64,000 bases of DNA from Eubacteriales bacterium (GTDB taxonomy: Bacteria > Bacillota > Clostridia > Lachnospirales > Lachnospiraceae), in the NCBI GenBank assembly GCA_030524455.1, contig JAUNGT010000011.1:5052-69051 (forward strand). The letters run 5' to 3'. The notes beneath the pieces are model-generated. The model had not been told where the DNA came from, did not search any database, and was given only the letters and a program-made list of their open reading frames with translations. Numbering within the stretch: the first letter of the stretch is position 1; the number at the start of each line of letters is the position of its first letter. The translations under genes and the position numbers were made by a program. This document shows positions 1 to 9,848 of the stretch, piece by piece.

Positions 1-371
1 TCCTCCACCGTAAGCTGCCGCTGAGAGGAATCCGTCCCTCCCGACTGTCCCGGTGCAGAAGAGCTGCCCATATTCATCTGGGGAAAAGCGTCCCCTGACT
101 GCCAGGAAAAGGAGGAATCCCCGGTAAACTCCGACAAATCCAGCTCAAACACCTGGCTCTTTGTTCCCACCGAGATGCTGCCCTCCTCCGTCACAACGGA
201 CGTCTGCCCCTGCGCCGTCGCTACCTCCGGCGCAGCCTCCCTGCTATCCTCCCGTTCCTGTCCTCTTTTGGTCAGATACCACGCCGTCACCCCGGCGGCC
301 AGCGCCAGGACAAGCACGACCGCAAGGAAAACCGCAGGGATTTTTTTCTGTTTTTTCTGATCCGCCTTCAT
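1..371 (-). CDS. HlyD/efflux RND-type periplasmic adaptor (MFP) paralog 3, 5' part only (runs off window)
   Basis: Not in ORF track. ATG at 371 after GAGGAGGAG gives MKADQKKQKKIPAVFLAVVLVLALAAGVTAWYL (N-terminal anchor)...VVTEEGSISVG...LTVEE, matching VTESGSIAL and LQIQE/LYVEE of the two upstream paralogs; open to window edge. Confidence 0.8.
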   Translation of the reverse strand, partial: MKADQKKQKKIPAVFLAVVLVLALAAGVTAWYLTKRGQEREDSREAAPEVATAQGQTSVVTEEGSISVGTKSQVFELDLSEFTGDSSFSWQSGDAFPQMNMGSSSAPGQSGGTDSSQRQLTVE

Positions 372-387
372 CTGCCTTCTCTCCTCC

Positions 388-1998
388 TCACCCGGCGCTG
401 CTTCTGATATAAATTACATCGCCCTCTGAAAGTCCCTCCGTGATTTCCACGGACGTACTGTTTTCCATTCCGGTCTGAACCTCCTGCAGCTGTTTTTCCT
501 CCCCGTCTCCCACATAGACATAGGTTTTCCCGTTCTGCTCCACCACGGCCTTGCGGGACACATACAGAACATCCGGCACTTCCTCCTCCACAAAGGTAAT
601 CTCCGCCGTCATGCCCCCGTAAAGCTTTTGCGTATCGCCCTCCACGCGCACCGCCACCGGATAGCTGACGGTTTTTGCGTAGGAGGAGGTTTTTGTCGTG
701 GTGACGGAAAGGACCGTCCCGCTGTATTCCTCCTCCAGATAAGCCTCAAAGGACACCCGGACGCTGTCTCCGATGGAAATGTCTGCGATATCCTCCTCGG
801 ACACGTCCACCGAAACCGTGTAATCCGCCGTTTTGACATAGGTAAGCATGGTTCCCGTCTGCGTCAGCCGGTCCCCCGCCTCATAAACCACCTCCGTCAC
901 CATGCCCTCTCCGTCCGCATAGACCACGCAGTCTTCCCTCACAAAATCATTCAGCTCCTCCAGCGTTTCCCGCGCCTCGTCCACATCCGCCTGAGCCTCG
1001 TCCACGCTGCTCTGCAGCGATTCCTTCGTGTAGGCGTAAATATCCGCCGCCAGCTCCCCGCCGGAAATGCTCAGCTCATAGGTGTTTTGGGCGTCGGACT
1101 GCTTCGCCTCCAGGATTCCCTGTTTTTCCAGAATCGTCTCCTGATTGGCAAGGATTGTCTCCTGATTGTCCGCCACCGTTTCCTCCCAGCCCTCCTGCTG
1201 GGAAAGCAAATTCTCATACTGTGTCTTTGCGCTGGTATAATCCGCATAATTGGCCGAATAGGCGGCCGGACTGGACAGATCCGTCTCCTCATAGGTCTCC
1301 TTCGCCTTCTCATAGGCGGTCAGAGCCTCCTCCAGGGAATCCTTAAAGTCCTCATCCGTCAGCTTTTCCAGGCACCGGTCGATTTCCTCCTGCAGGACGG
1401 CGGTCTGGGCCAGCAGTCCGTTGATTTCCTCCGTCAGCTGCGTCTGCGTGGCGTCAAGCTGCTCTGCCGCCGTGTTGGCCGTCAGCATACTGGTATCGTA
1501 GGTGCTCCTGGCGGACAGCACCGAGGTATTATATTCCGACTGGGCCTGCGCCAGCGCAATCTCCTTCTCCGTCAGCGCAGCCTCCAGCTTGCGCACCACT
1601 GCCTGATAGCTCTCCTGCGTGATGGAAAACAGGGGATCTCCCTCCGCGATCCGCTGTCCGCTGACCGCGTAAACCTCCTGGATCTGCAGATAGCCCGGTT
1701 CCTCGTCCTCGCTGTCCTCATCCTCGCTGTCCTCGTCGTCCTCGTCCTCCTCCGTGTTCACCTCCACATCGAAGGTGATGTAGGATTCCTCCAGCGCGAT
1801 GCTTCCGCTCTCCGTCACGCCCCGCACCAGATCGCCCCGCTGCACCGTTTCCTCCTTATAGACCGTTTCGTTTTCCTCCGCTCCCTGCGCCAGCAGCGTA
1901 TAGGCGGCGGCTCCCGCCGTCAAAAGCACTGCCGCCAGAAAAAGGCACAGACCGAGCAGTCTCTTCGGATTTCGGGTGATCCATTTTCTGATTTTCAT
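388..1998 (-). CDS. HlyD/efflux RND-type periplasmic adaptor (MFP) paralog 2
   Basis: N-terminal TM, VQRGDLVRGVTESGSI, barrel-sandwich halves (EVYAVSGQRIAEGDPLF; ADGEGMVTEVVYEAGD), long coiled coil, beta-barrel (VSVDVSEEDIADISIGD), C-terminal VQTGMENSTSVEITEGLSEGD. Confidence 0.88.
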   Translation of the reverse strand: MKIRKWITRNPKRLLGLCLFLAAVLLTAGAAAYTLLAQGAEENETVYKEETVQRGDLVRGVTESGSIALEESYITFDVEVNTEEDEDDEDSEDEDSEDEEPGYLQIQEVYAVSGQRIAEGDPLFSITQESYQAVVRKLEAALTEKEIALAQAQSEYNTSVLSARSTYDTSMLTANTAAEQLDATQTQLTEEINGLLAQTAVLQEEIDRCLEKLTDEDFKDSLEEALTAYEKAKETYEETDLSSPAAYSANYADYTSAKTQYENLLSQQEGWEETVADNQETILANQETILEKQGILEAKQSDAQNTYELSISGGELAADIYAYTKESLQSSVDEAQADVDEARETLEELNDFVREDCVVYADGEGMVTEVVYEAGDRLTQTGTMLTYVKTADYTVSVDVSEEDIADISIGDSVRVSFEAYLEEEYSGTVLSVTTTKTSSYAKTVSYPVAVRVEGDTQKLYGGMTAEITFVEEEVPDVLYVSRKAVVEQNGKTYVYVGDGEEKQLQEVQTGMENSTSVEITEGLSEGDVIYIRSSAG

Positions 1999-3947
1999 TC
2001 CGCATCTCCTTCCCCGGTTCCCGGCGCTCCTGCTCCGAAGGCTCCGCCCCCCTCAGGCATATTCATGCCCTCCGGCATGCCCTCGCCCTCCGGCATGCCC
2101 TGGAAATCTTCAGGGGCTTCCATCCCCTCCGGCAGCTCCTGCACTTCATTGCCGGATACCTGTCCGCCCGTGTTTGCGGCAGTCAAAGCTTCCTTTTCCT
2201 CCTCCGTCAGTCCAAAATAGACGTAGGCGGTCAGATTTGCCTCCAATTCGGAAACGTCTCCCTCCAGTTCCACATTGACTGTGTAAGTCACCGATGCGCT
2301 GCCCGCCGTCTCCGAAACCGGATTGAAGCTGGTTACCTTTCCCTCGAATACGCCGTAGCCGCTGATCACAGCCACCGCCTCATCCCCGATTTCGATCTTT
2401 GCGATATCCGACTGATCCACATCCGCCGACACCGATACGGTGTCCGGACTGGTATAAGCCAGGACCATACTGTCCTCCGTCAGCCAGCTTCCCGCGCGCA
2501 CGCTCGTCATCATCACCGTTCCGGCTTCCGAGGTATAGAAAACCCCGTCCCCGATCACTTCCCTGAAATCCTCCAGATTCTGCGACGCCGTTTCCTCCTC
2601 GTCCTTCAGCGTCTGATATTCCTCCTCCAGCTGCTTTACCGTGGTTTCATATACCGTCTGGGCGCTCTCGTTTTCCGCCGCCGCAATCTCATAGGTTTCC
2701 CTGGCGGCAATGACTGCCTCCTCATAGGCAATCTTTTGTTCGGCCAGCTGGGCCTGCAGCACCTTCAGCTCGCTTTTGGCCTTTTCAATCCCTGCTGCGG
2801 CAGCGTCTCTTGCCTCCTCGTAGCTTTCCAGCGCCTCCTCGTAGGCAGCCTCCTGTTCCTCGGCTTCCTCCTCCATCGCCAGATAAATATTGTAGCGGAT
2901 CTCGTCGGAGCCTACCTGGACGGTCGGGATTCTCCCCTCCAGATCCATTCCCTCGGACATTTCCATGCCCTCCGGCATTTCCGGCATACCGCCCGCCCCG
3001 GGATCCGGGGGCGTCGTACCGCCTCCGGAGCCGTCGCCTTCTTCTCCGGAGCCGTCGCCTTCTCCGGAGTCGCCTCCCGTATCTTCTTCCTCCGGGCTTT
3101 CCTCCGTTGTTTTCACGGTTTCCGTACTGTAATAGGCCGCGGGAATCTCCTGCACATCACTCTCCTGCGCGGCAGCATTCCCGGCTGCCTGTGCCGAGGA
3201 TATGCCGCCGGAGGTCCCCGCCGCGGCATTGTTCGTCACATAGCCAATTCCGTTTTTGCCGCCTGAGCCGCCAAACACCGATTCCAGGCTTTCCACGTCC
3301 CATTCGTTGTACAGCTCCATCAAAAAGGCCGCGTAGTCCTTCCAGGTTGCCTCCAGCTCGCCCACCTCGTAATAGGTATAGTAATAGTCCTCCTCGATGG
3401 AGGCCGTATATTCATCCACCTTTTCCTGCGCCTCGTCCACCTTCTCCTGGACGCTGTCCAGCTGCTCCTGGGCCTGTGCCACCGCATCGTCATATACCGC
3501 CTGGGCATATTCCGCTTCCGCGGCGGACAGCTTTTTCTGGATTTCCGCCTCCGCCAGGCCGGTCTGATAGTCGATCTCCCCCTGCCTGCGGTTGAGCTCT
3601 GCCTCCGTGGCTGCCCGCTCCAGCTCCTTCTCCGCGTCCTCCAGGCTGTCCTGCGAAACCTTAAAAACCGGCGTGTCCGCCTCCACCTGATCGCCCATAT
3701 TCAGGTAGGTTTCCTCCACATACAGCCCTTCCTCCAAAAATCCCAGCTCCCAGCTCTCCTCCCGCATTCCCACTCCCGTCAGTCCGGAGGCGGACACGGC
3801 GTTCTCCGAAAGGCTCATCCCTTCGGGAAGCGTCGGCATCTGCTCCTGACCGGCAGGCTGCGTATACAAATAAAAACAGGTCGCCGCGGCTCCTCCCGCC
3901 ACGACCATCACCGAAAGGCCGATCACTGCCAGTTTTTTCCTTTTCAC
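1995..3947 (-). CDS. HlyD/efflux RND-type periplasmic adaptor (MFP) paralog 1 with Gly/Met/Pro/Glu-rich inserts
   Basis: Start refined to GTG 3947 (or adjacent TTG 3950) after GGGAGG. N-terminal TM, ETYLNMGDQVEADTPVF, coiled coil, VSADVDQSDIAKIEIGD; 4-bp overlap with next gene. Confidence 0.85.
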   Translation of the reverse strand: MKRKKLAVIGLSVMVVAGGAAATCFYLYTQPAGQEQMPTLPEGMSLSENAVSASGLTGVGMREESWELGFLEEGLYVEETYLNMGDQVEADTPVFKVSQDSLEDAEKELERAATEAELNRRQGEIDYQTGLAEAEIQKKLSAAEAEYAQAVYDDAVAQAQEQLDSVQEKVDEAQEKVDEYTASIEEDYYYTYYEVGELEATWKDYAAFLMELYNEWDVESLESVFGGSGGKNGIGYVTNNAAAGTSGGISSAQAAGNAAAQESDVQEIPAAYYSTETVKTTEESPEEEDTGGDSGEGDGSGEEGDGSGGGTTPPDPGAGGMPEMPEGMEMSEGMDLEGRIPTVQVGSDEIRYNIYLAMEEEAEEQEAAYEEALESYEEARDAAAAGIEKAKSELKVLQAQLAEQKIAYEEAVIAARETYEIAAAENESAQTVYETTVKQLEEEYQTLKDEEETASQNLEDFREVIGDGVFYTSEAGTVMMTSVRAGSWLTEDSMVLAYTSPDTVSVSADVDQSDIAKIEIGDEAVAVISGYGVFEGKVTSFNPVSETAGSASVTYTVNVELEGDVSELEANLTAYVYFGLTEEEKEALTAANTGGQVSGNEVQELPEGMEAPEDFQGMPEGEGMPEGMNMPEGGGAFGAGAPGTGEGDAE

Positions 3948-3992
3948 CAAAAACCTCCCGTCCGCGCGGATCAACGCGCAGCATATTTCATG

Positions 3993-4191
3993 CAAACAGT
4001 TCAGCCAGCCGGGAGCGAACGGACAAAATCGTGCTTGCACGAATTTTGGCCGGTTGCTCCTGGCTGAGGGAGCGCCCGATGATGAGCAAAGTTAGCCGCG
4101 CAGCGGCGGAAAGCGCGTTATGCGCGAAAGACGAACAAGTTCGAAAGACGAACAAGTTCGTCTGCCCGAATGGCGCGGGCTGAACGGTTAC
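3993..4191. mobile_element. MITE-like non-autonomous element, copy 1
   Basis: Ends caaacagttcagcc / ggctgaacggttac (imperfect 14-bp inverted repeat). Reverse complement aligns with 61705-61868 (8 mismatches over the shared 126-nt part). Long internal palindrome. Confidence 0.8.
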
Positions 4192-4202
4192 AACTGTCCT
4201 CC

Positions 4203-4234
4203 ATTGTATCGGCCTTTTCTTAAAACAACCTTGA
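4203..4234 (-). promoter_or_regulatory. Putative response-regulator-activated promoter of the MFP operon
   Basis: Minus strand TCAAG-N6-TTAAG-N10-TACAAT: 11-bp-period direct repeat replacing the -35, typical of OmpR-family targets. Confidence 0.6.
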
Positions 4235-4336
4235 AAAAAAGTGAGAATTGTGTGAAATGAGTTTCTTCCTGTACGCATTTGTGGTATCTTATGAAAAACA
4301 GAGGCGTGAGAACGTGTTTTTGGAAAGGATATTCCC

Positions 4337-5005
4337 ATGCGAATTTTGATTGTGGAGGATGAGGCCGCGCTGGCGGAAGCCTTGTCCGAGATTCTGCGGC
4401 AGAACGGCTATCTCTCCGATACCGCCGCAAACGGCACGGACGGGCTGGAGTTTGCCCGTATCGGCATTTATGACCTGATCCTTCTGGATATCATGCTGCC
4501 CGGCATGGACGGTCTTTCCGTCCTGAAGGCCCTGCGCCGCGAAAAAATCCATACGCCCGTCATCCTGCTCACCGCCCGCTCGGAGGTCTCGGACATCATC
4601 GCCGGCCTGGACGCGGGCAGCGACGATTATCTTCCCAAGCCCTTTTCCACCGCGGAGCTGCTGGCGCGCATCCGCGCCATTTCCCGGCGCGGCGGGCGGT
4701 ATCTGGAGGATAGCTGCTGCTTTGAGGACCTGTCCCTGCAAAAGGGCTCCATGGAGCTTTCCTGCGGCAGCCGCACGATCCGTCTGGGCTTAAAGGAGTT
4801 TCAGCTGATGGAGCTTTTTCTGCGCAATCCCCACCAGGTGCTGCCCAAGGATCTGATTATCGGAAAAATCTGGGGCCTGGACACTGCCGCCGACTACAAC
4901 AACGTGGAGGTCTATGTCTCCTTCCTGCGCCAGAAGCTGCAGGCGCTGGGCTCCCGGGCTTCCATCCGCACCAACCGCGGCGTAGGCTACAGCCTGGAGG
5001 CATGA
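4337..5005 (+). CDS. OmpR-family response regulator
   Basis: MRILIVEDE, LLDIMLPGMDG, DDYLPKPF, winged-helix end TNRGVGYSL. Confidence 0.95.
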   Translation: MRILIVEDEAALAEALSEILRQNGYLSDTAANGTDGLEFARIGIYDLILLDIMLPGMDGLSVLKALRREKIHTPVILLTARSEVSDIIAGLDAGSDDYLPKPFSTAELLARIRAISRRGGRYLEDSCCFEDLSLQKGSMELSCGSRTIRLGLKEFQLMELFLRNPHQVLPKDLIIGKIWGLDTAADYNNVEVYVSFLRQKLQALGSRASIRTNRGVGYSLEA

Positions 5006-5006
5006 C

Positions 5007-6260
5007 ATGATCCGAAAGCTTCGCTTCAAATTTATTGCGGTCACGATGACCTCCATCGGCTGCCTGCTGCTGCTGATTCTGCTTGTCATCAACATCTTTA
5101 TGAATGTGTCCAGCCGCAGCCAGGGCTACCGGATGCTGGAAGGCTTTTCCCGCGATTTCGGACAGACAGACGACGCAGAGCCGGAATTTTCCGCACATCC
5201 GCAGCCGCCCCGGGATCCCGCCTATCAGGACGCCTTCCGGATATTCAGCGTCTCCTGCGACGCCGACGGCAATCCCCTGCAGGTCAGCTATCTGCCGGAC
5301 TCGGAGCTTGAGCGGGAGGATATTCTGGCCATCTTCCGGAAAGCCGTAAAGGATTGGCCCAAAAGCCGTCCGGAAAGAGGCATTGTGCAGAGCCGCTATC
5401 TGTATCTTGTCAGCAAACAGGATGGCTTCTGGCAGATTTATTTTCTGGACTACTCGGTGGAGCGCTCCATGGTATACCGGCTTTTTTTCCTCTGCCTGCT
5501 GGCCGGAAGCTTCGGCATCGCAGTTCTTTTTGCCGCGGTCTTTCTCCTGTCCGGCTGGATGGTGCGCCCGGTGGAGGCGGCCTTTGAAAAGCAAAAGCAG
5601 TTCATTGCGGACGCCTCCCATGAGCTCAAAACGCCGCTGACCATCCTCTCCGCAAACGCCGAGGTGCTCTCTGCCTCTCTCGGTCCCAACCGCTGGCTGA
5701 CACACATCCTGGAACAGACGCAGCGGATGAACACGCTGATCCGGGAGCTTCTGGACCTGGCCCGGTTGGACAGCGGCACACAGAAGGCGGATTTTGTCCC
5801 CTTCGACTTAAGCCGCTGCTGCTTAAACGCCGCCCTGTCCTTCGAGAGCGTGGCCTTCGAGTCCTGCATCAGCCTCCGGACAGAGATTACAGAGGGAATC
5901 TCCCTCACCGGCAGCGAAAATATGCTGCGCCAGCTGGTCACCATCCTGCTGGACAATGCCTTCAAATACGCGGACGAGGGCGGCATGGTAAAGCTGTCCC
6001 TGCGCCAGAAGGGCGAAAAACGGCTTCTCTCCGTGTACAATACCGGCAAGGGGATCCCGCAGGAGGAACAGGCGCACATTTTCGAGCGTTTTTACAGAAG
6101 CGACAGCTCCCGCAGCCGGGAATCCGGCGGCTATGGCCTGGGACTCGCCATCGCCTCCTCCATCACCGCAGCGCACGGCGGGCAGATCAGCGTCTCAAGC
6201 GACGGCAAAAGCTTTACGAAAATTACGGTGACGCTGCCTCCCAATGCCCCCAGCAAATAA
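5007..6260 (+). CDS. Sensor histidine kinase
   Basis: Two TMs, H-box FIADASHELKTPL, N-box LLDNAFKY, G1 NTGKGI, G2 GYGLGLAIA. Confidence 0.95.
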   Translation: MIRKLRFKFIAVTMTSIGCLLLLILLVINIFMNVSSRSQGYRMLEGFSRDFGQTDDAEPEFSAHPQPPRDPAYQDAFRIFSVSCDADGNPLQVSYLPDSELEREDILAIFRKAVKDWPKSRPERGIVQSRYLYLVSKQDGFWQIYFLDYSVERSMVYRLFFLCLLAGSFGIAVLFAAVFLLSGWMVRPVEAAFEKQKQFIADASHELKTPLTILSANAEVLSASLGPNRWLTHILEQTQRMNTLIRELLDLARLDSGTQKADFVPFDLSRCCLNAALSFESVAFESCISLRTEITEGISLTGSENMLRQLVTILLDNAFKYADEGGMVKLSLRQKGEKRLLSVYNTGKGIPQEEQAHIFERFYRSDSSRSRESGGYGLGLAIASSITAAHGGQISVSSDGKSFTKITVTLPPNAPSK

Positions 6261-6267
6261 CGGCCGT

Positions 6268-7113
6268 TCACCTGCCGGCGTCTGAAATGGCCTTTGACGG
6301 GCAGATTTTTTTGCAGCGCCCGCAGCGAATACATTCGCCGGAGTTGACCTCCTTTACCGGATCGATCCCCATACCGCAAACCTGCCTGCAGGCCCCGCAG
6401 CCCGTACACTTTTGGGGATCTGCCCGGTACCGGTAAACCGAGATGCGGTTAAAAAAGGAATAGATGGCGCCCAGCGGACAAATATATTTGCAGAACGGGC
6501 GGTATATTATGACGGACGCCAAAACCGTAACCGCCAACAGGACGGTTTTCCAGGCATACAGCCAGCCCAGTGCGCTGCGCAGCCCTGCATTCAGCAAAAC
6601 ATTCGGAATACCGCCCTCCAGGGTACCGACCGGGCAGAGCAGCTTGCAGAAATATGGTGCGCCCTGCCCCAAAACGTCCGTCAAAAGCATCGGGAGCAAA
6701 ATCACAAACACAAGAAGAATGATATATTTCAATCTGCGCAGCAGCCGGTCGCCGCGAAAGGACGCAATTTTTACAGGAAACGGAAGCTTATTTAACAGCT
6801 CCTGAAGCAGTCCGAACGGACACAGCCAGCCGCAGGCCAATCGCCCGGTCAGTGCGCCGACAAAAAAGAGAAAACCGGCGACGTAGAGAGGGAGCTTAAA
6901 GCTCCGGCTGCCCAAAACCGCCTGCAGCGCCCCGATCGGGCAGGACATCAGCGCGCCGGGGCAGGAATAGCAGTTCATCCCCGGCACACACAGATTTTTC
7001 AGTCTGCCCTGATAGATTTTCCCCTGAAGGAAGCCCACCATATAGCTGTTGCTCAATAACGCCCAAATTGCCTGTACGGCATGTCTTTTTTTATCCGGAT
7101 TTCTTTTACCCAA
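6268..7113 (-). CDS. Membrane 4Fe-4S binding protein (NapH/YccM-like polyferredoxin)
   Basis: Start refined to TTG 7113, overlapping the upstream small gene. Motifs NCYSCP...CP, CGWLCP, CKLLCP, CKYICP and two CxxCxxCxxxC ferredoxin motifs; several TMs. Confidence 0.88.
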   Translation of the reverse strand: MGKRNPDKKRHAVQAIWALLSNSYMVGFLQGKIYQGRLKNLCVPGMNCYSCPGALMSCPIGALQAVLGSRSFKLPLYVAGFLFFVGALTGRLACGWLCPFGLLQELLNKLPFPVKIASFRGDRLLRRLKYIILLVFVILLPMLLTDVLGQGAPYFCKLLCPVGTLEGGIPNVLLNAGLRSALGWLYAWKTVLLAVTVLASVIIYRPFCKYICPLGAIYSFFNRISVYRYRADPQKCTGCGACRQVCGMGIDPVKEVNSGECIRCGRCKKICPSKAISDAGR

Positions 7114-7255
7114 TTCCGATACACTCCAAACATATGCGTGTTGCCTTTGCCAGCACCACCGCCATTTCGCCGCGGGCAATGCCGCAGGCCATAAGCACCG
7201 CGCCCACCAGGGCCAGGGCGGCGCCGGCAAAATATCGTCTGAACCGATTGTGCAT
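7106..7255 (-). CDS. 49-aa membrane protein with C-terminal CxxC (CD1871A-like family)
   Basis: Not in ORF track. GGAGG RBS then MHNRFRRYFAGAALALVGAVLMACGIARGEMAVVLAKATRICLECIGIG*; packed between the tlpA-like gene and the 4Fe-4S gene. Confidence 0.88.
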   Translation of the reverse strand: MHNRFRRYFAGAALALVGAVLMACGIARGEMAVVLAKATRICLECIGIG

Positions 7256-7258
7256 TTC

Positions 7259-7831
7259 TTAATCCTCCAGCTTCTCTAACTGCTCCCGCGCCAGATCGGC
7301 CCATTCCCCGGCGGTATACGCGCCGGAAAACGCATCCCCCACAATCGTTCCGGTTTCATCCACAAAAAAGCTTGTGGGAAACGCCGTAACCGAATTCAGC
7401 TTTCCGCCCAGCAGGGTTTCGTCCGGGACCAGCAGGGGAAACTGAACTTCCGTGCGCTCTGCCAGCGTCTTTGCGCTGTCCAGGGCGTCCGCATCGACGG
7501 AGTCCTCCCCGCGGGTATCCGTCACAAACGCCACCACTCCAACCCCTTCCTCCTCAAGCTCCCGGCGCAGCTGCTCCAGGGCGGGAAATTCCTCCACGCA
7601 GGGAGTACACCAGGTCGCCATGACATTCACCAGCGTCAGCCGGCGCCCGGCAAAAATACTCTGGTCAACATCGTTGCCCGAGATGTCCTGTGTCGTAAAA
7701 TCCCCCAGCTTCGTTCCTTCGGTAAATTCTCCGGCATCGTCCGGCTGATCTTTGGCACCGGCACAGGCAGCCAGGGAAAACGCAAGCGCGATGGACAGGA
7801 AAAGTGCAGCAAATCTTTTTAATTTTTTCAT
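7259..7831 (-). CDS. TlpA-family thiol-disulfide oxidoreductase lipoprotein
   Basis: Start refined to ATG 7831 (GAGGAGG RBS); lipobox LAAC; LVNVMATWCTPCVEEFP; FPTSFFVD. Confidence 0.92.
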   Translation of the reverse strand: MKKLKRFAALFLSIALAFSLAACAGAKDQPDDAGEFTEGTKLGDFTTQDISGNDVDQSIFAGRRLTLVNVMATWCTPCVEEFPALEQLRRELEEEGVGVVAFVTDTRGEDSVDADALDSAKTLAERTEVQFPLLVPDETLLGGKLNSVTAFPTSFFVDETGTIVGDAFSGAYTAGEWADLAREQLEKLED

Positions 7832-7882
7832 GGAAAGCCTCCTCGTTCTCATTTGCAGGGATGTGTCATCCCCGATAAACAG

Positions 7883-7915
7883 GATGATAGCATAAGGCGT
7901 ATAAAATCTCTGTTA
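7883..7915 (-). promoter_or_regulatory. Putative response-regulator-dependent promoter of the tlpA module
   Basis: Minus strand TTAAC-N6-TTTAT-N11-TATCAT with TG extension; same architecture as 4203-4234 but more degenerate. Confidence 0.4.
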
Positions 7916-7993
7916 AGCTGTCATGCTCTTTTTCTGGAAGGGGATAATAAAGTGTGCTATGATGAAACAAAAAACAATTCGACGGGGCAAGGT

Positions 7994-8674
7994 ATGAGAT
8001 TATTGATCATAGAGGATGAATACGAGCTGAGACAAATGCTGGAAAAGGGACTTCGCATGGCCGGCTATGAAACGGACTCCTGCGGAAACGGCGCGGAGGG
8101 TCTGGAGCTGGCGCTTTGCGAAGCTTACGATCTGATTCTTCTGGATCTGAATCTGCCGGGTCTGGACGGCATGGAGCTTTTGCGCGCGCTGCGCCGGGAA
8201 AACGAGGAGGTCCGCGTGCTCATCCTTTCCGCCCGGGATTCCCTGTCCGATAAAATCAGCGGACTGGACAGCGGCGCCAACGATTTCCTGACCAAGCCGT
8301 TTCATTTTGAGGAGCTGGAAGCCCGCATCCGAAGCCTTACCCGGCGGCGCTTTCTTCAGCAAAACGTCAACCTGATCTACGGGGAGCTGCATTTTGACAC
8401 ACTCACCCGCATAGCCAGCGTCAACGGTTCGCCGCTGCCGCTGACCAGGAAGGAGACGGGAATCCTGGAATATCTGCTGCTCAACCGTCACCGGATCATC
8501 AGTCAGGAGGAATTGATGGAGCACATCTGGGACGGAAGCGTCAATGAATTCAGCAATTCCACGCGGGTACACATTTCCTCCCTGCGCAAAAAGCTCCGGG
8601 CAGCGCTGGGATATGACCCTGTGGTCAACCGGATCGGCCAGGGATATCATTTGAAGGAGGATTCCAATGCGTAA
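7994..8674 (+). CDS. OmpR-family response regulator
   Basis: Start refined to ATG 7994: MRLLIIEDE, LLDLNLPGLDG, DFLTKPF, RIGQGY. Confidence 0.94.
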   Translation: MRLLIIEDEYELRQMLEKGLRMAGYETDSCGNGAEGLELALCEAYDLILLDLNLPGLDGMELLRALRRENEEVRVLILSARDSLSDKISGLDSGANDFLTKPFHFEELEARIRSLTRRRFLQQNVNLIYGELHFDTLTRIASVNGSPLPLTRKETGILEYLLLNRHRIISQEELMEHIWDGSVNEFSNSTRVHISSLRKKLRAALGYDPVVNRIGQGYHLKEDSNA

Positions 8675-9848
8675 GCTGTCTCTGCGGTGGCGCCTGACGC
8701 TCGCCATGACGCTGCTCTCCGCCTGTGCCTGCCTCACGATGGCGGTTGTCTCCAATCACTATGCACAGGTCCAGATGACGGATCTGGCAGACTTCTCCAT
8801 TGAGGCTGCCGATATCATGCAAAACGGAGAGCTTGAAATCGAGATCGATCCCGGGCTTGAGGATGCGCTGAATTCCCGCGTCCATGCTCAGCTGCGGAGC
8901 CTGAACCGCTGGATCTATCTAAGCTCCCTCCTTGTCATCTGCGCCACGGCAGCTGGCACCTATGTACTGGCCGGACGAATCCTGTCACCTCTGCGCCGTT
9001 TTATCCTCCAAATGGACCAAGTGCAGGCGCAGAACCTGTCGGAGCCGCTGCAAATCCCCGTAAGCCAGGACGAGATCGCACAGCTGACGCATACCTTCAA
9101 CCGGATGCAGCAGCGGTTGAAGGCCTCCTTTGATTCCCAAAAACAATTTGCCTCCAATGCCGCTCATGAGCTGCGGACACCGCTGGCTGTCCTGCAGACC
9201 GGCCTGGAGCTTCTGTTAAAAGAGCCTAACGCGCCGCGGGAAGAGCTGCTGCGCAAAATCACGGACGCCCACGCCCAGACGGAGCGGCTTTCTCATCTGG
9301 TGAGCGAGCTGCTGGAGATGACCCGCCTGGATACCATCGAGCGAAAGGAGCTTATCCCGCTGCACGCGATGCTGGAGGAGCTTTGCTGCGATCTGTACTG
9401 TACCGCCGAAGAGCATCAGGTTTCCCTCCGGCTGACGGGCGGCGACGCGGTTGTCTCTGCCAATGACACCCTGCTGTACCGGGCTTTCTCCAATCTCATT
9501 GAAAATGCGATAAAATACAACCGGCCGGGAGGAAGCGTTACGGTTGACATTGCGCCTGCGGAACAATCCGTCTCCGTCACCGTCACGGACACCGGCGTGG
9601 GGATCCCTCCGGAATCCGCTGTTCTGGTCTTTGAGCCGTTTTACCGCGTCGATCCCTCGCACAGCCGTCCCGGCTCCGGGCTCGGGCTGGCTCTGACGAA
9701 AAAAATACTAACGCTCCACAATGGGACCGTAGAAATTTCCAAAAGCACGCCCGCCGGAACCACGGTGACGGTCACGCTCCGTGCTCCAGCATCGTTTCCA
9801 CAAAAATCCCGTATCCTCTTGTCGAATCGTGGACAAACACATGGGTGA
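8667..9848 (+). CDS. Sensor histidine kinase (HAMP-HisKA-HATPase)
   Basis: Two TMs, HAMP, FASNAAHELRTPL, LIENAIKY, DTGVGI, GSGLGLAL. 3' end overlaps spoIVB on the opposite strand. Confidence 0.93.
   Translation: MRKLSLRWRLTLAMTLLSACACLTMAVVSNHYAQVQMTDLADFSIEAADIMQNGELEIEIDPGLEDALNSRVHAQLRSLNRWIYLSSLLVICATAAGTYVLAGRILSPLRRFILQMDQVQAQNLSEPLQIPVSQDEIAQLTHTFNRMQQRLKASFDSQKQFASNAAHELRTPLAVLQTGLELLLKEPNAPREELLRKITDAHAQTERLSHLVSELLEMTRLDTIERKELIPLHAMLEELCCDLYCTAEEHQVSLRLTGGDAVVSANDTLLYRAFSNLIENAIKYNRPGGSVTVDIAPAEQSVSVTVTDTGVGIPPESAVLVFEPFYRVDPSHSRPGSGLGLALTKKILTLHNGTVEISKSTPAGTTVTVTLRAPASFPQKSRILLSNRGQTHG

Follow-up and report, generated by a model that had tools for sequence, protein, structure and literature searches.

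A three-gene membrane module of gut Clostridia joins a NapH-like Fe-S protein, a 49-residue CxxC protein and a TlpA-like lipoprotein and may form an envelope thiol-reducing relay

The window analysed here is a stretch of 64,000 nucleotides of contig JAUNGT010000011.1 from a Lachnospiraceae bacterium (assembly GCA_030524455.1), whose 3.27-Mb genome is 98% complete and is labelled G000 in our comparison set. Our subject is a compact unit of three minus-strand genes within it, here called the module, that encodes an exported thioredoxin-fold lipoprotein, a membrane protein of 49 amino acids (aa) with a CxxC motif, and a membrane Fe-S protein resembling NapH. A response regulator and a sensor histidine kinase are encoded divergently from it. 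An earlier reading made from the DNA letters alone (the sequence-only reading) had described this arrangement, and the three-gene unit, its junctions and the divergent pair are all present. The genes of the module are the following.

Positions 7259 to 7831, minus strand: TlpA/ResA-like thioredoxin-fold lipoprotein, 190 aa, with an LAAC lipobox, a WCTPC motif and Pfam matches.
Positions 7106 to 7255, minus strand: small CD1871A-family membrane protein, 49 aa, with an NF040920 match and coding selection.
Positions 6268 to 7113, minus strand: NapH-like membrane Fe-S protein, 281 aa, with a TTG start and two Fer4_5 matches.

In the direction of transcription the order is tlpA, the small gene and the NapH-like gene, with a gap of 3 nt between the tlpA stop and the ATG of the small gene and an overlap of 8 nt between the small-gene stop and the TTG of the NapH-like gene (TTGGGTAA). 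The tlpA open reading frame (ORF) was listed as 7259..7852 and has an alternative upstream ATG at 7852; the ATG at 7831, 6 nt past a GAGGAGG, is the likelier start and gives a predicted protein of 190 aa. The small gene has a GGAGGA 7 nt ahead of its start. For the NapH-like gene the TTG at 7113 is most likely the start of a 281-aa protein, because homologues conserve an N-terminus (...KRHxxQAxWALLxNSY) from there.

The small protein (MHNRFRRYFAGAALALVGAVLMACGIARGEMAVVLAKATRICLECIGIG) lay in an ORF that the sequence-only reading had picked out as hidden and likened to CD1871A. This likeness is borne out by NCBIfam NF040920 (CD1871A_fam; 58.2 bits, E=5.5e-16, cut-off 32 bits), a family that NCBIfam names without assigning it a function. 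The model has a single match in the genome search, the small protein itself (57.3 bits), and zero matches across 14 control genomes. In 110 related loci, the entropy at the three codon positions is 1.04/0.67/1.65 over the whole gene and 0.63/0.27/1.38 over its last 16 codons, both Cys are retained in 110/110, and the median dN/dS is approximately 0.3. By these measures of sequence the small ORF is a real coding gene under purifying selection. A chance ORF was considered and is excluded by the selection test together with the family hidden Markov model.

The small protein has a basic N-terminus, a transmembrane (TM) helix at residues 9-27, an RGE turn, and a tail that ends in C42-LE-C45-IGIG. 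The ending ICLECIGIG fits the pattern C-x-E-C-x-G-x-G, whose C, E, C, G and G show no variation in an alignment of 55 members. Searched against 1.84 billion representative proteins, a profile of 55 members recovers 3428 sequence clusters, 688 of them at E<=1e-10, and among the best 150 of the 3428 the match reaches the protein C-terminus in nearly all.

The lipoprotein carries the signal MKKLKRFAALFLSIALAFSLAAC and exceeds the Pfam cut-offs for Redoxin (49 bits) and AhpC-TSA (52 bits); a glutathione-peroxidase Pfam model matches as well. It stays below the equivalog cut-offs for ResA (PRK03147, 62.8 against 170 bits) and TlpA (NF047696, 62.5 against 230 bits), and by these scores it is a relative of the family and an orthologue of neither. 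The closest solved structures are Bradyrhizobium japonicum TlpA (1JFU, E=2.6e-10), ResA and Streptococcus pneumoniae Etrx. Many module-linked TlpA lipoproteins are longer (357-425 aa; L125 (G039), L034, L045, L058, L066 and L079) and have an extra N-terminal domain of approximately 200 aa with the motif ...YEYPFLGL... and no Pfam match; the window has the short form.

The NapH-like protein contains 18 Cys. They include C42, C48-x2-C51-P, C58-P, C94-x3-C98-P, C156-x3-C160-P, C208-x3-C212-P and two CxxCxxCxxxC motifs, so that the CxxxCP motifs named in the sequence-only reading are right for three cases, but the first motif is CxxCP. Pfam finds Fer4_5 twice and Fer4 twice, with a C-terminal 2x[4Fe-4S] ferredoxin domain. 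As in NapH/MauN, there are four TM helices, with a CX3CP motif following each of TM2 and TM4, and two [4Fe-4S] motifs at the C-terminus. However, the protein falls below the cut-offs of these families (TIGR02163 NapH/MauN, 79.9 against 213.05 bits; NapH NF007013, 62.5 against 234 bits), and the CcoG family matches it weakly (E=1e-3). More than 8,000 close homologues carry the sole label '4Fe-4S binding protein'.

An AlphaFold2 (AF2) model of this protein (predicted local distance difference test, pLDDT, 79.5; predicted template-modelling score, pTM, 0.78) has helices at residues 7-30, 75-96, 122-143 and 176-202, of which three are strong and the first is weak in hydropathy. When Foldseek compared the model with the PDB, the 60-residue ferredoxin domain alone had a match (E>0.3), and no solved structure spanned the membrane part. 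As a side observation, a 498-aa ORF at L114 (G474:C74) has the NapH-like protein fused at its cytoplasmic C-terminus to an adenylate-kinase-like P-loop domain (GPSGSGKST).

A survey of co-occurrence, which the sequence-only reading had proposed and to which it had added Sec-for-Cys variants, gives firm support to the unit as such. We used one genome per genus for 201 Lachnospiraceae genera, a class sample of 400 Clostridia genomes, and 80 related loci in named genomes, among them those of Lachnospiraceae, Oscillospiraceae, Acutalibacteraceae, Christensenellaceae, Peptostreptococcaceae, Clostridiaceae and Treponema. The small family is present in 74/201 Lachnospiraceae genera (approximately 37%). 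Small and large genes are adjacent in all 31 Lachnospiraceae loci, where without exception the large gene comes after the small one or overlaps it, and in approximately 77/80 loci across Clostridia and Treponema. In the class sample, 73 of the 400 genomes have the small protein over the cut-off, and every one of the 73 has the NapH-like gene alongside; the module frequency in the sampled Clostridia genomes is 19%, and only two weak, partial matches represent the large gene alone. A TlpA-like gene is adjacent in 27/31 Lachnospiraceae loci and approximately 63/80 wider loci. Three gene orders occur: tlpA-small-large, as in the window, small-large-tlpA, and large-small-X-tlpA. The three genes are a co-inherited unit.

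Beyond these three, clustering of approximately 1,000 neighbouring genes from the 80 loci gave no further conserved neighbour in more than 12/80 loci; therefore the module is self-contained, with no co-encoded substrate. The lack of a conserved substrate gene nearby would suit a function in oxidant detoxification in place of the repair of protein disulfides, in which the lipoprotein would be a surface thiol peroxidase, recharged across the membrane via the Fe-S module, that guards a strict anaerobe from O2 or H2O2. The AhpC-TSA and glutathione-peroxidase matches of the lipoprotein, and the occurrence of the module mainly in oxygen-sensitive gut anaerobes, point the same way. However, TlpA-family proteins routinely match such Pfam models without being peroxidases, and the CxxC spacing is that of thioredoxin rather than the TxxC/resolving-Cys layout of peroxiredoxins. 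We consider this function unlikely.

The module may also be mobile. The large protein keeps 70-73% identity across distant genera, and in Clostridioides difficile 630 the neighbour of CD1871A, the gene that gave the family its name, is CD18710, which is counted as conjugative-transposon DNA in a table of PMC12772354. These two observations hint at horizontal movement.

Natural fusions bear on the arrangement of the proteins in the membrane. In G419, G343 and G569, a single chain runs from the large protein through a linker and one additional TM helix into a TlpA-like domain (with WCGPC or MCTSC). Because a single extra helix lies between them, these sequences fix the predicted position of the ferredoxin domain inside and of the thioredoxin outside. 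The gene upstream of each fusion encodes a protein with three or five TM helices that ends in KAINICTECIGLG. The odd helix counts of these partners, their strongly basic inner loops and the basic N-terminus of the 49-aa form indicate that the CxxC tail starts at the outer face. The canonical CX3CP motifs of NapH are on the inner side of the membrane. Given an inside C-terminal Fe-S domain and a basic N-terminus, we infer that loops 1 and 3 of the NapH-like protein, with six invariant Cys (C42, C48, C51, C58, C156 and C160), are outside, and that the two CX3CP motifs (C94/C98 and C208/C212) are inside.

In a Blautia locus the small and large genes share one frame, and we modelled their read-through as a pseudo-fusion with the stop read as Gly. 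In this model the small protein is a TM helix, a turn and a second helix that runs back from the RGE turn (pLDDT 84-95 over residues 11-40). The tail is hydrophobic (Kyte-Doolittle 1.49) and is predicted to fold back from the outer turn as a helix, so that its CxxC may be buried in the membrane at a level between the inner and outer Cys motifs instead of being exposed at the surface. For this reason the relay order drawn in the sequence-only reading, from membrane Cys to small protein to TlpA, is not established. MAFFT places the tail of the small protein (window 7106-7180; G..RGE..V..KA.NIC.EC.GIG) on loop 1 of the NapH-like protein (6940-7020; GKIY.GKLKN.CVPG.NCYSCPGA.G); the two may be distantly related repeats, or the alignment may be at fault.

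In two genomes the search for selenocysteine (Sec) forms found an in-frame TGA where the CxxC would have its first Cys. The end of the small gene is ...KATKI-TGA-LECIGIG in G044 (G044:C2, L113 3130-3300, minus strand) and ...KAVRV-TGA-LECIGIG in G490, which is from a different family (G490:C17, L132 1606-1737, plus strand). In both, a hairpin starts approximately 12-14 nt past the TGA, and both genomes encode SelB over the cut-off (360 and 385 bits, respectively); the genome of the window has none. We regard the two genes as probable selenoprotein members of the CD1871A family, whose name does not appear in the table of prokaryotic selenoproteins of a 2026 review. Two independent Cys-to-Sec replacements at the same residue argue that the first Cys of the small CxxC is a redox-active nucleophile. 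At the G044 locus a CPBP (CAAX-type) intramembrane protease gene (L113 2245-3111) separates the Sec-type small gene from tlpA.

Exported thioredoxins of the TlpA type are usually served by CcdA or DsbD. None of the three module proteins matches DsbD_TM (PF02683) or DsbD_2 (PF13386), and there is no DsbD/CcdA gene within the window. The statement of the sequence-only reading that CcdA/DsbD is missing here thus holds for the window, but not for the organism, for which we rejected it: the sole DsbD/CcdA match in the genome is a 220-aa CcdA (69 bits) on contig C45. The ccdA gene is followed 9 nt on by a gene for a ResA-like lipoprotein with WCGPC (C45:28808-30139; L112 4309-5640). By sequence, these two genes give the genome a second pair for envelope reduction, of the conventional kind, and a CcdA beside its own ResA-like gene mirrors the module beside its own TlpA. 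Among the 201 Lachnospiraceae genera, module and CcdA-type proteins are negatively associated in tests not corrected for phylogeny, with the following counts of genera.

Module against DsbD_TM: both 14, module only 60, CcdA-type only 51, neither 76; odds ratio 0.35, p=0.002.
Module against DsbD_TM or DsbD_2: both 17, module only 57, CcdA-type only 52, neither 75; odds ratio 0.43, p=0.013.

As judged by these domains, 57 of the 74 module-bearing genera (77%), which have neither DsbD_TM nor DsbD_2, are without a known membrane carrier of reductant for an exported thioredoxin.

The electron donor was considered from the side of quinones. Menaquinone prenyltransferase MenA was not found in the 98%-complete genome, although control searches were positive; therefore a quinol donor is disfavoured and electron entry via the cytoplasmic ferredoxin domain is favoured. 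This bears on the possibility that the large protein is an ordinary quinol dehydrogenase of the NapH/NosR type feeding an extracytoplasmic reductase, with the thioredoxin and the small protein as assembly factors only. The combination of four TM helices, Cys-Pro motifs and 2x[4Fe-4S], common to NapH and NosR, would fit such an enzyme (PMC5928378). Yet at 79.9 bits the protein scores far under the cut-off of 213, MenA is missing from the genome, the related loci share no neighbouring gene for a reductase, and in the natural fusions the partner is the thioredoxin itself, all of which makes a quinol dehydrogenase extremely unlikely. There are likewise no nap/mau partner genes in the locus or conserved in the 80 related loci (no genome-wide search for napA or napG was made). 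NapH proper was rejected as an identity for the large protein, given a score under the cut-off and a host that makes no quinone.

We lean towards reading the module as an Fe-S-driven, CcdA-independent relay that reduces thiols outside the cell. In this scenario, the three gene products would be one membrane redox machine that takes cytoplasmic reducing equivalents to the thioredoxin-fold lipoprotein on the outer face, a job usually done by CcdA/DsbD. Reduced ferredoxin would be the probable source of the electrons, which would enter at the cytoplasmic 2x[4Fe-4S] domain and move on to C94/C98 and C208/C212, the Cys-Pro motifs of the inner side. Transfer through the membrane could then lead to the Cys in loops 1 and 3 (C42, C48, C51, C58, C156 and C160), and the small CxxC would take part in it, be it as a relay in mid-membrane or as the final arm on the outward side. 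The Cys-Pro motifs may be carriers of Fe-S clusters or redox-active disulfides. The WCTPC of the lipoprotein would thereby become reduced, and could in turn reduce envelope disulfides or oxidants. A CcdA-independent relay had already been proposed in the sequence-only reading and is borne out in part: co-conservation, fusions, Sec forms and the negative association with DsbD/CcdA speak for it.

A broader claim seems to us about an even bet: CD1871A and the NapH-like protein would make up a second class of transmembrane disulfide reductase, with a mechanism of its own, powered by ferredoxin-type Fe-S clusters instead of cytoplasmic thioredoxin and relaying through Cys-Pro motifs at both faces of the membrane and a 49-residue (seleno)cysteine subunit. 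It would be the main route by which gut Clostridia that lack CcdA hold their surface thioredoxins in the reduced state and, in the window, would be inducible and a regulon of a single operon.

Several points weigh against a reducing relay. Full-text literature searches returned no experiments on the CD1871A family or the module; 'CD1871A' had no full-text match and the module no published function, and a second CD1871 match was set aside as it refers to another gene numbering. The direction of electron flow is read only from the WCxPC motif, homology to reductants and thermodynamics. With a CcdA in the genome, the module is in principle dispensable for the reduction of its TlpA, and the association with CcdA, as said, takes no account of phylogeny. 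Approximately 20% of loci, mainly in Acutalibacteraceae and Oscillospiraceae, have no adjacent TlpA gene, and the sensor pair is missing from most module loci. As for the placement of loop 1 outside, itself drawn from the topology argument, TM1 of the NapH-like protein is weakly hydrophobic, the loop has five Lys/Arg and zero acidic residues, and its confidence in AF2 is low both alone and in the read-through pseudo-fusion.

The architecture is formally reversible, and electrons could thus run the other way. The module would then be a disulfide-forming analogue of DsbA/DsbB for a quinone-free anaerobe, in which the lipoprotein oxidises the Cys of exported proteins and the Fe-S protein carries the electrons inward; without MenA, the host has no quinone for a DsbB or VKOR oxidase. 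However, both the WCxPC motif and the nearest relatives (TlpA, ResA and Etrx) point to a reductant, electron flow from a dithiol to a low-potential [4Fe-4S] cluster is uphill, and the negative association concerns CcdA, which belongs to a reducing pathway. Reverse flow therefore strikes us as very unlikely.

Returning to the outward relay, the adjacent two-component system could provide its control. The features of the regulatory region are the following.

Positions 7994 to 8674, plus strand: OmpR/PhoB-family response regulator, with a receiver and a winged helix.
Positions 8667 to 9848, plus strand: sensor histidine kinase, with 2 TM helices, a loop of approximately 55 aa, HAMP, HisKA and HATPase.
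Positions 7899 to 7917, minus strand: direct-repeat box CTTAACAGAGATTTTATAC, a predicted regulator site with an 11-bp period, at the -35 position.
Positions 7884 to 7892, minus strand: extended -10 element TGCTATCAT, 6 nt past the box.

The regulator and kinase genes are separated from the module by an intergenic region of 162 bp. Orthologues of the regulator (270-319 bits) adjoin the module in at least 15 other genera, usually divergent from small-large-tlpA, and in G039 the regulator and module are arranged exactly as in the window. The consensus ahead of the first module gene is CTTAACA-N4-TTTTAYAC, 6 nt, and then TGnTATAAT or TTGTATAAT; in other loci the -10 at the same spacing is TTGTATAAT or TGTTATAAT. 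Box and -10 are found in every locus with an orthologous regulator, namely the window and 15 further loci (loci with the box: L002, L003, L010, L013, L015, L016, L018, L020, L024, L025, L027-L030, L125 and L061). No box was found in module loci with unrelated regulators or without a regulator. The sequence-only reading had taken the divergent sensor pair as the module's own, and a recurrent partnership and a conserved box agree with this, but the pair is absent from most module loci.

At promoters activated by PhoB or OmpR, the half-sites of the regulator replace the -35 element. The half-sites of the box are 11 bp apart and stand in place of a -35 element, and we predict that the box is the binding site of the adjacent OmpR-type regulator. 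The exact box occurs as a single copy in the 3.27-Mb genome, with no second good copy; therefore the regulon is probably the module operon alone. The divergent regulator and kinase would turn the operon on via this direct-repeat box. The sensor loop of the kinase (approximately 55 aa) is short, acidic-rich and poorly conserved. Envelope thiol or metal stress, put forward as inducer in the sequence-only reading, would have to be sensed without a conserved Cys, His or Met in this loop. At its 3' end the kinase gene overlaps the convergent spoIVB by 77 nt (window 9772-9848).

On the other side of the module, window 1-6260 encodes two to three tandem HlyD-type adaptor paralogues with Met-rich MPEGM repeats and a divergent regulator and kinase pair of their own. 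The Met-rich tracts suggest handling of Cu or Ag, and this cassette is the sole hint to metal stress as the signal for the module.

A role in metal handling can be built on this neighbourhood: the NapH-like protein would be a reductase of cupric or other metal ions, like CcoG, the TlpA-like protein would keep metal-binding Cys reduced, and both would be induced by metals with the adaptor cassette. The kinase and regulator have their best matches in heavy-metal groups (cztS/silS/copS for the kinase, 202 bits against a cut-off of 292; CopR/CztR among those of the regulator, all under cut-off), the weak CcoG match is in keeping with it, and the copper-stress genes ScsBCD of Salmonella include one for a TlpA-like protein. 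Against it, no metal gene is conserved beside the module in 80 loci, most loci do not have the sensor pair, an alignment of kinase orthologues reveals no conserved Cys, His or Met in the sensor loop, and no family cut-off of a metal system is reached. Metal handling is, in our judgement, quite unlikely.

The window copy is a real, ordinary-looking member of a widespread uncharacterised module, for which the family name (NCBIfam) and the three-gene operon (bioRxiv 10.1101/2025.11.06.686285) are already known. This 2025 preprint reports a 'novel three-protein operon' of a 4Fe-4S protein, a TlpA-family reductase and a CxxC protein in gut Clostridia, the same gene set, gene order and kind of organism as in the window. 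It treats the operon only as a metagenomic marker of the immune-related side effects of immunotherapy, and gives no mechanism, topology, distribution, fusions, selenocysteine or regulation. The additions of the window itself are a putative dedicated two-component switch with a conserved promoter box, and a module that coexists with a classical ccdA-resA pair. The clean switch offers a handle for finding the inducing signal.

From the perspective of the cell envelope, DsbD/CcdA is the textbook route of reducing power, yet approximately three quarters of the module-bearing Lachnospiraceae genera are without it and nevertheless encode exported TlpA-like thioredoxins. If the proposed relay is true, it would explain how surface thiols are kept up in abundant gut anaerobes, and would give a testable role to the long-unexplained CX3CP motifs of the NapH/NosR/RdhC superfamily. 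It would also supply the function behind the operon that the preprint ties to the side effects of immunotherapy.

Parts of the proposed relay have counterparts in known systems. In ferredoxin:thioredoxin reductase and heterodisulfide reductase, an Fe-S cluster beside a Cys pair allows one-electron donors to carry out the two-electron reduction of a disulfide. The same chemistry would be required in the module at the step from the ferredoxin domain to the Cys motifs; these enzymes are, however, soluble and of unrelated fold, and we found no sequence relationship between them and the module. The ScsABCD proteins of Salmonella, under CpxRA, are a thiol-reducing set of the envelope that includes a TlpA-like protein and is induced by a two-component system. 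In that set the membrane protein, ScsB, belongs to the DsbD family, unlike that of the module.

The large protein is most similar in layout to NapH/MauN, NosR/NirI and RdhC/PceC, which have four TM helices and two inner CX3CP motifs and pass electrons to an enzyme outside the membrane; with NapH and NosR it also shares the C-terminal 2x[4Fe-4S] domain. The role of the CX3CP motifs in NapH, NosR and RdhC is still undecided (PMC5928378). In contrast to those proteins, that of the module carries six additional invariant Cys on loops 1 and 3 and is accompanied by a thioredoxin and a CxxC mini-protein; the module lacks a flavin mononucleotide domain and has no nap, nos or rdh genes nearby, and its host has no quinone synthesis.

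In its presumed task, the module comes closest to CcdA/DsbD (and ScsB) with their clients TlpA, ResA, CcmG and Etrx, of which the CcdA-Etrx-MsrAB2 system of S. pneumoniae is an example (PMC3914529). Both have a membrane protein encoded beside an exported thioredoxin-fold lipoprotein with CxxC, and both presumably supply reductant to the envelope. The module differs in that DsbD_TM and DsbD_2 are replaced by a NapH-like Fe-S protein and a 49-aa CxxC subunit. Its likely donor is ferredoxin rather than cytoplasmic thioredoxin, and it is found mostly in genomes that lack CcdA.

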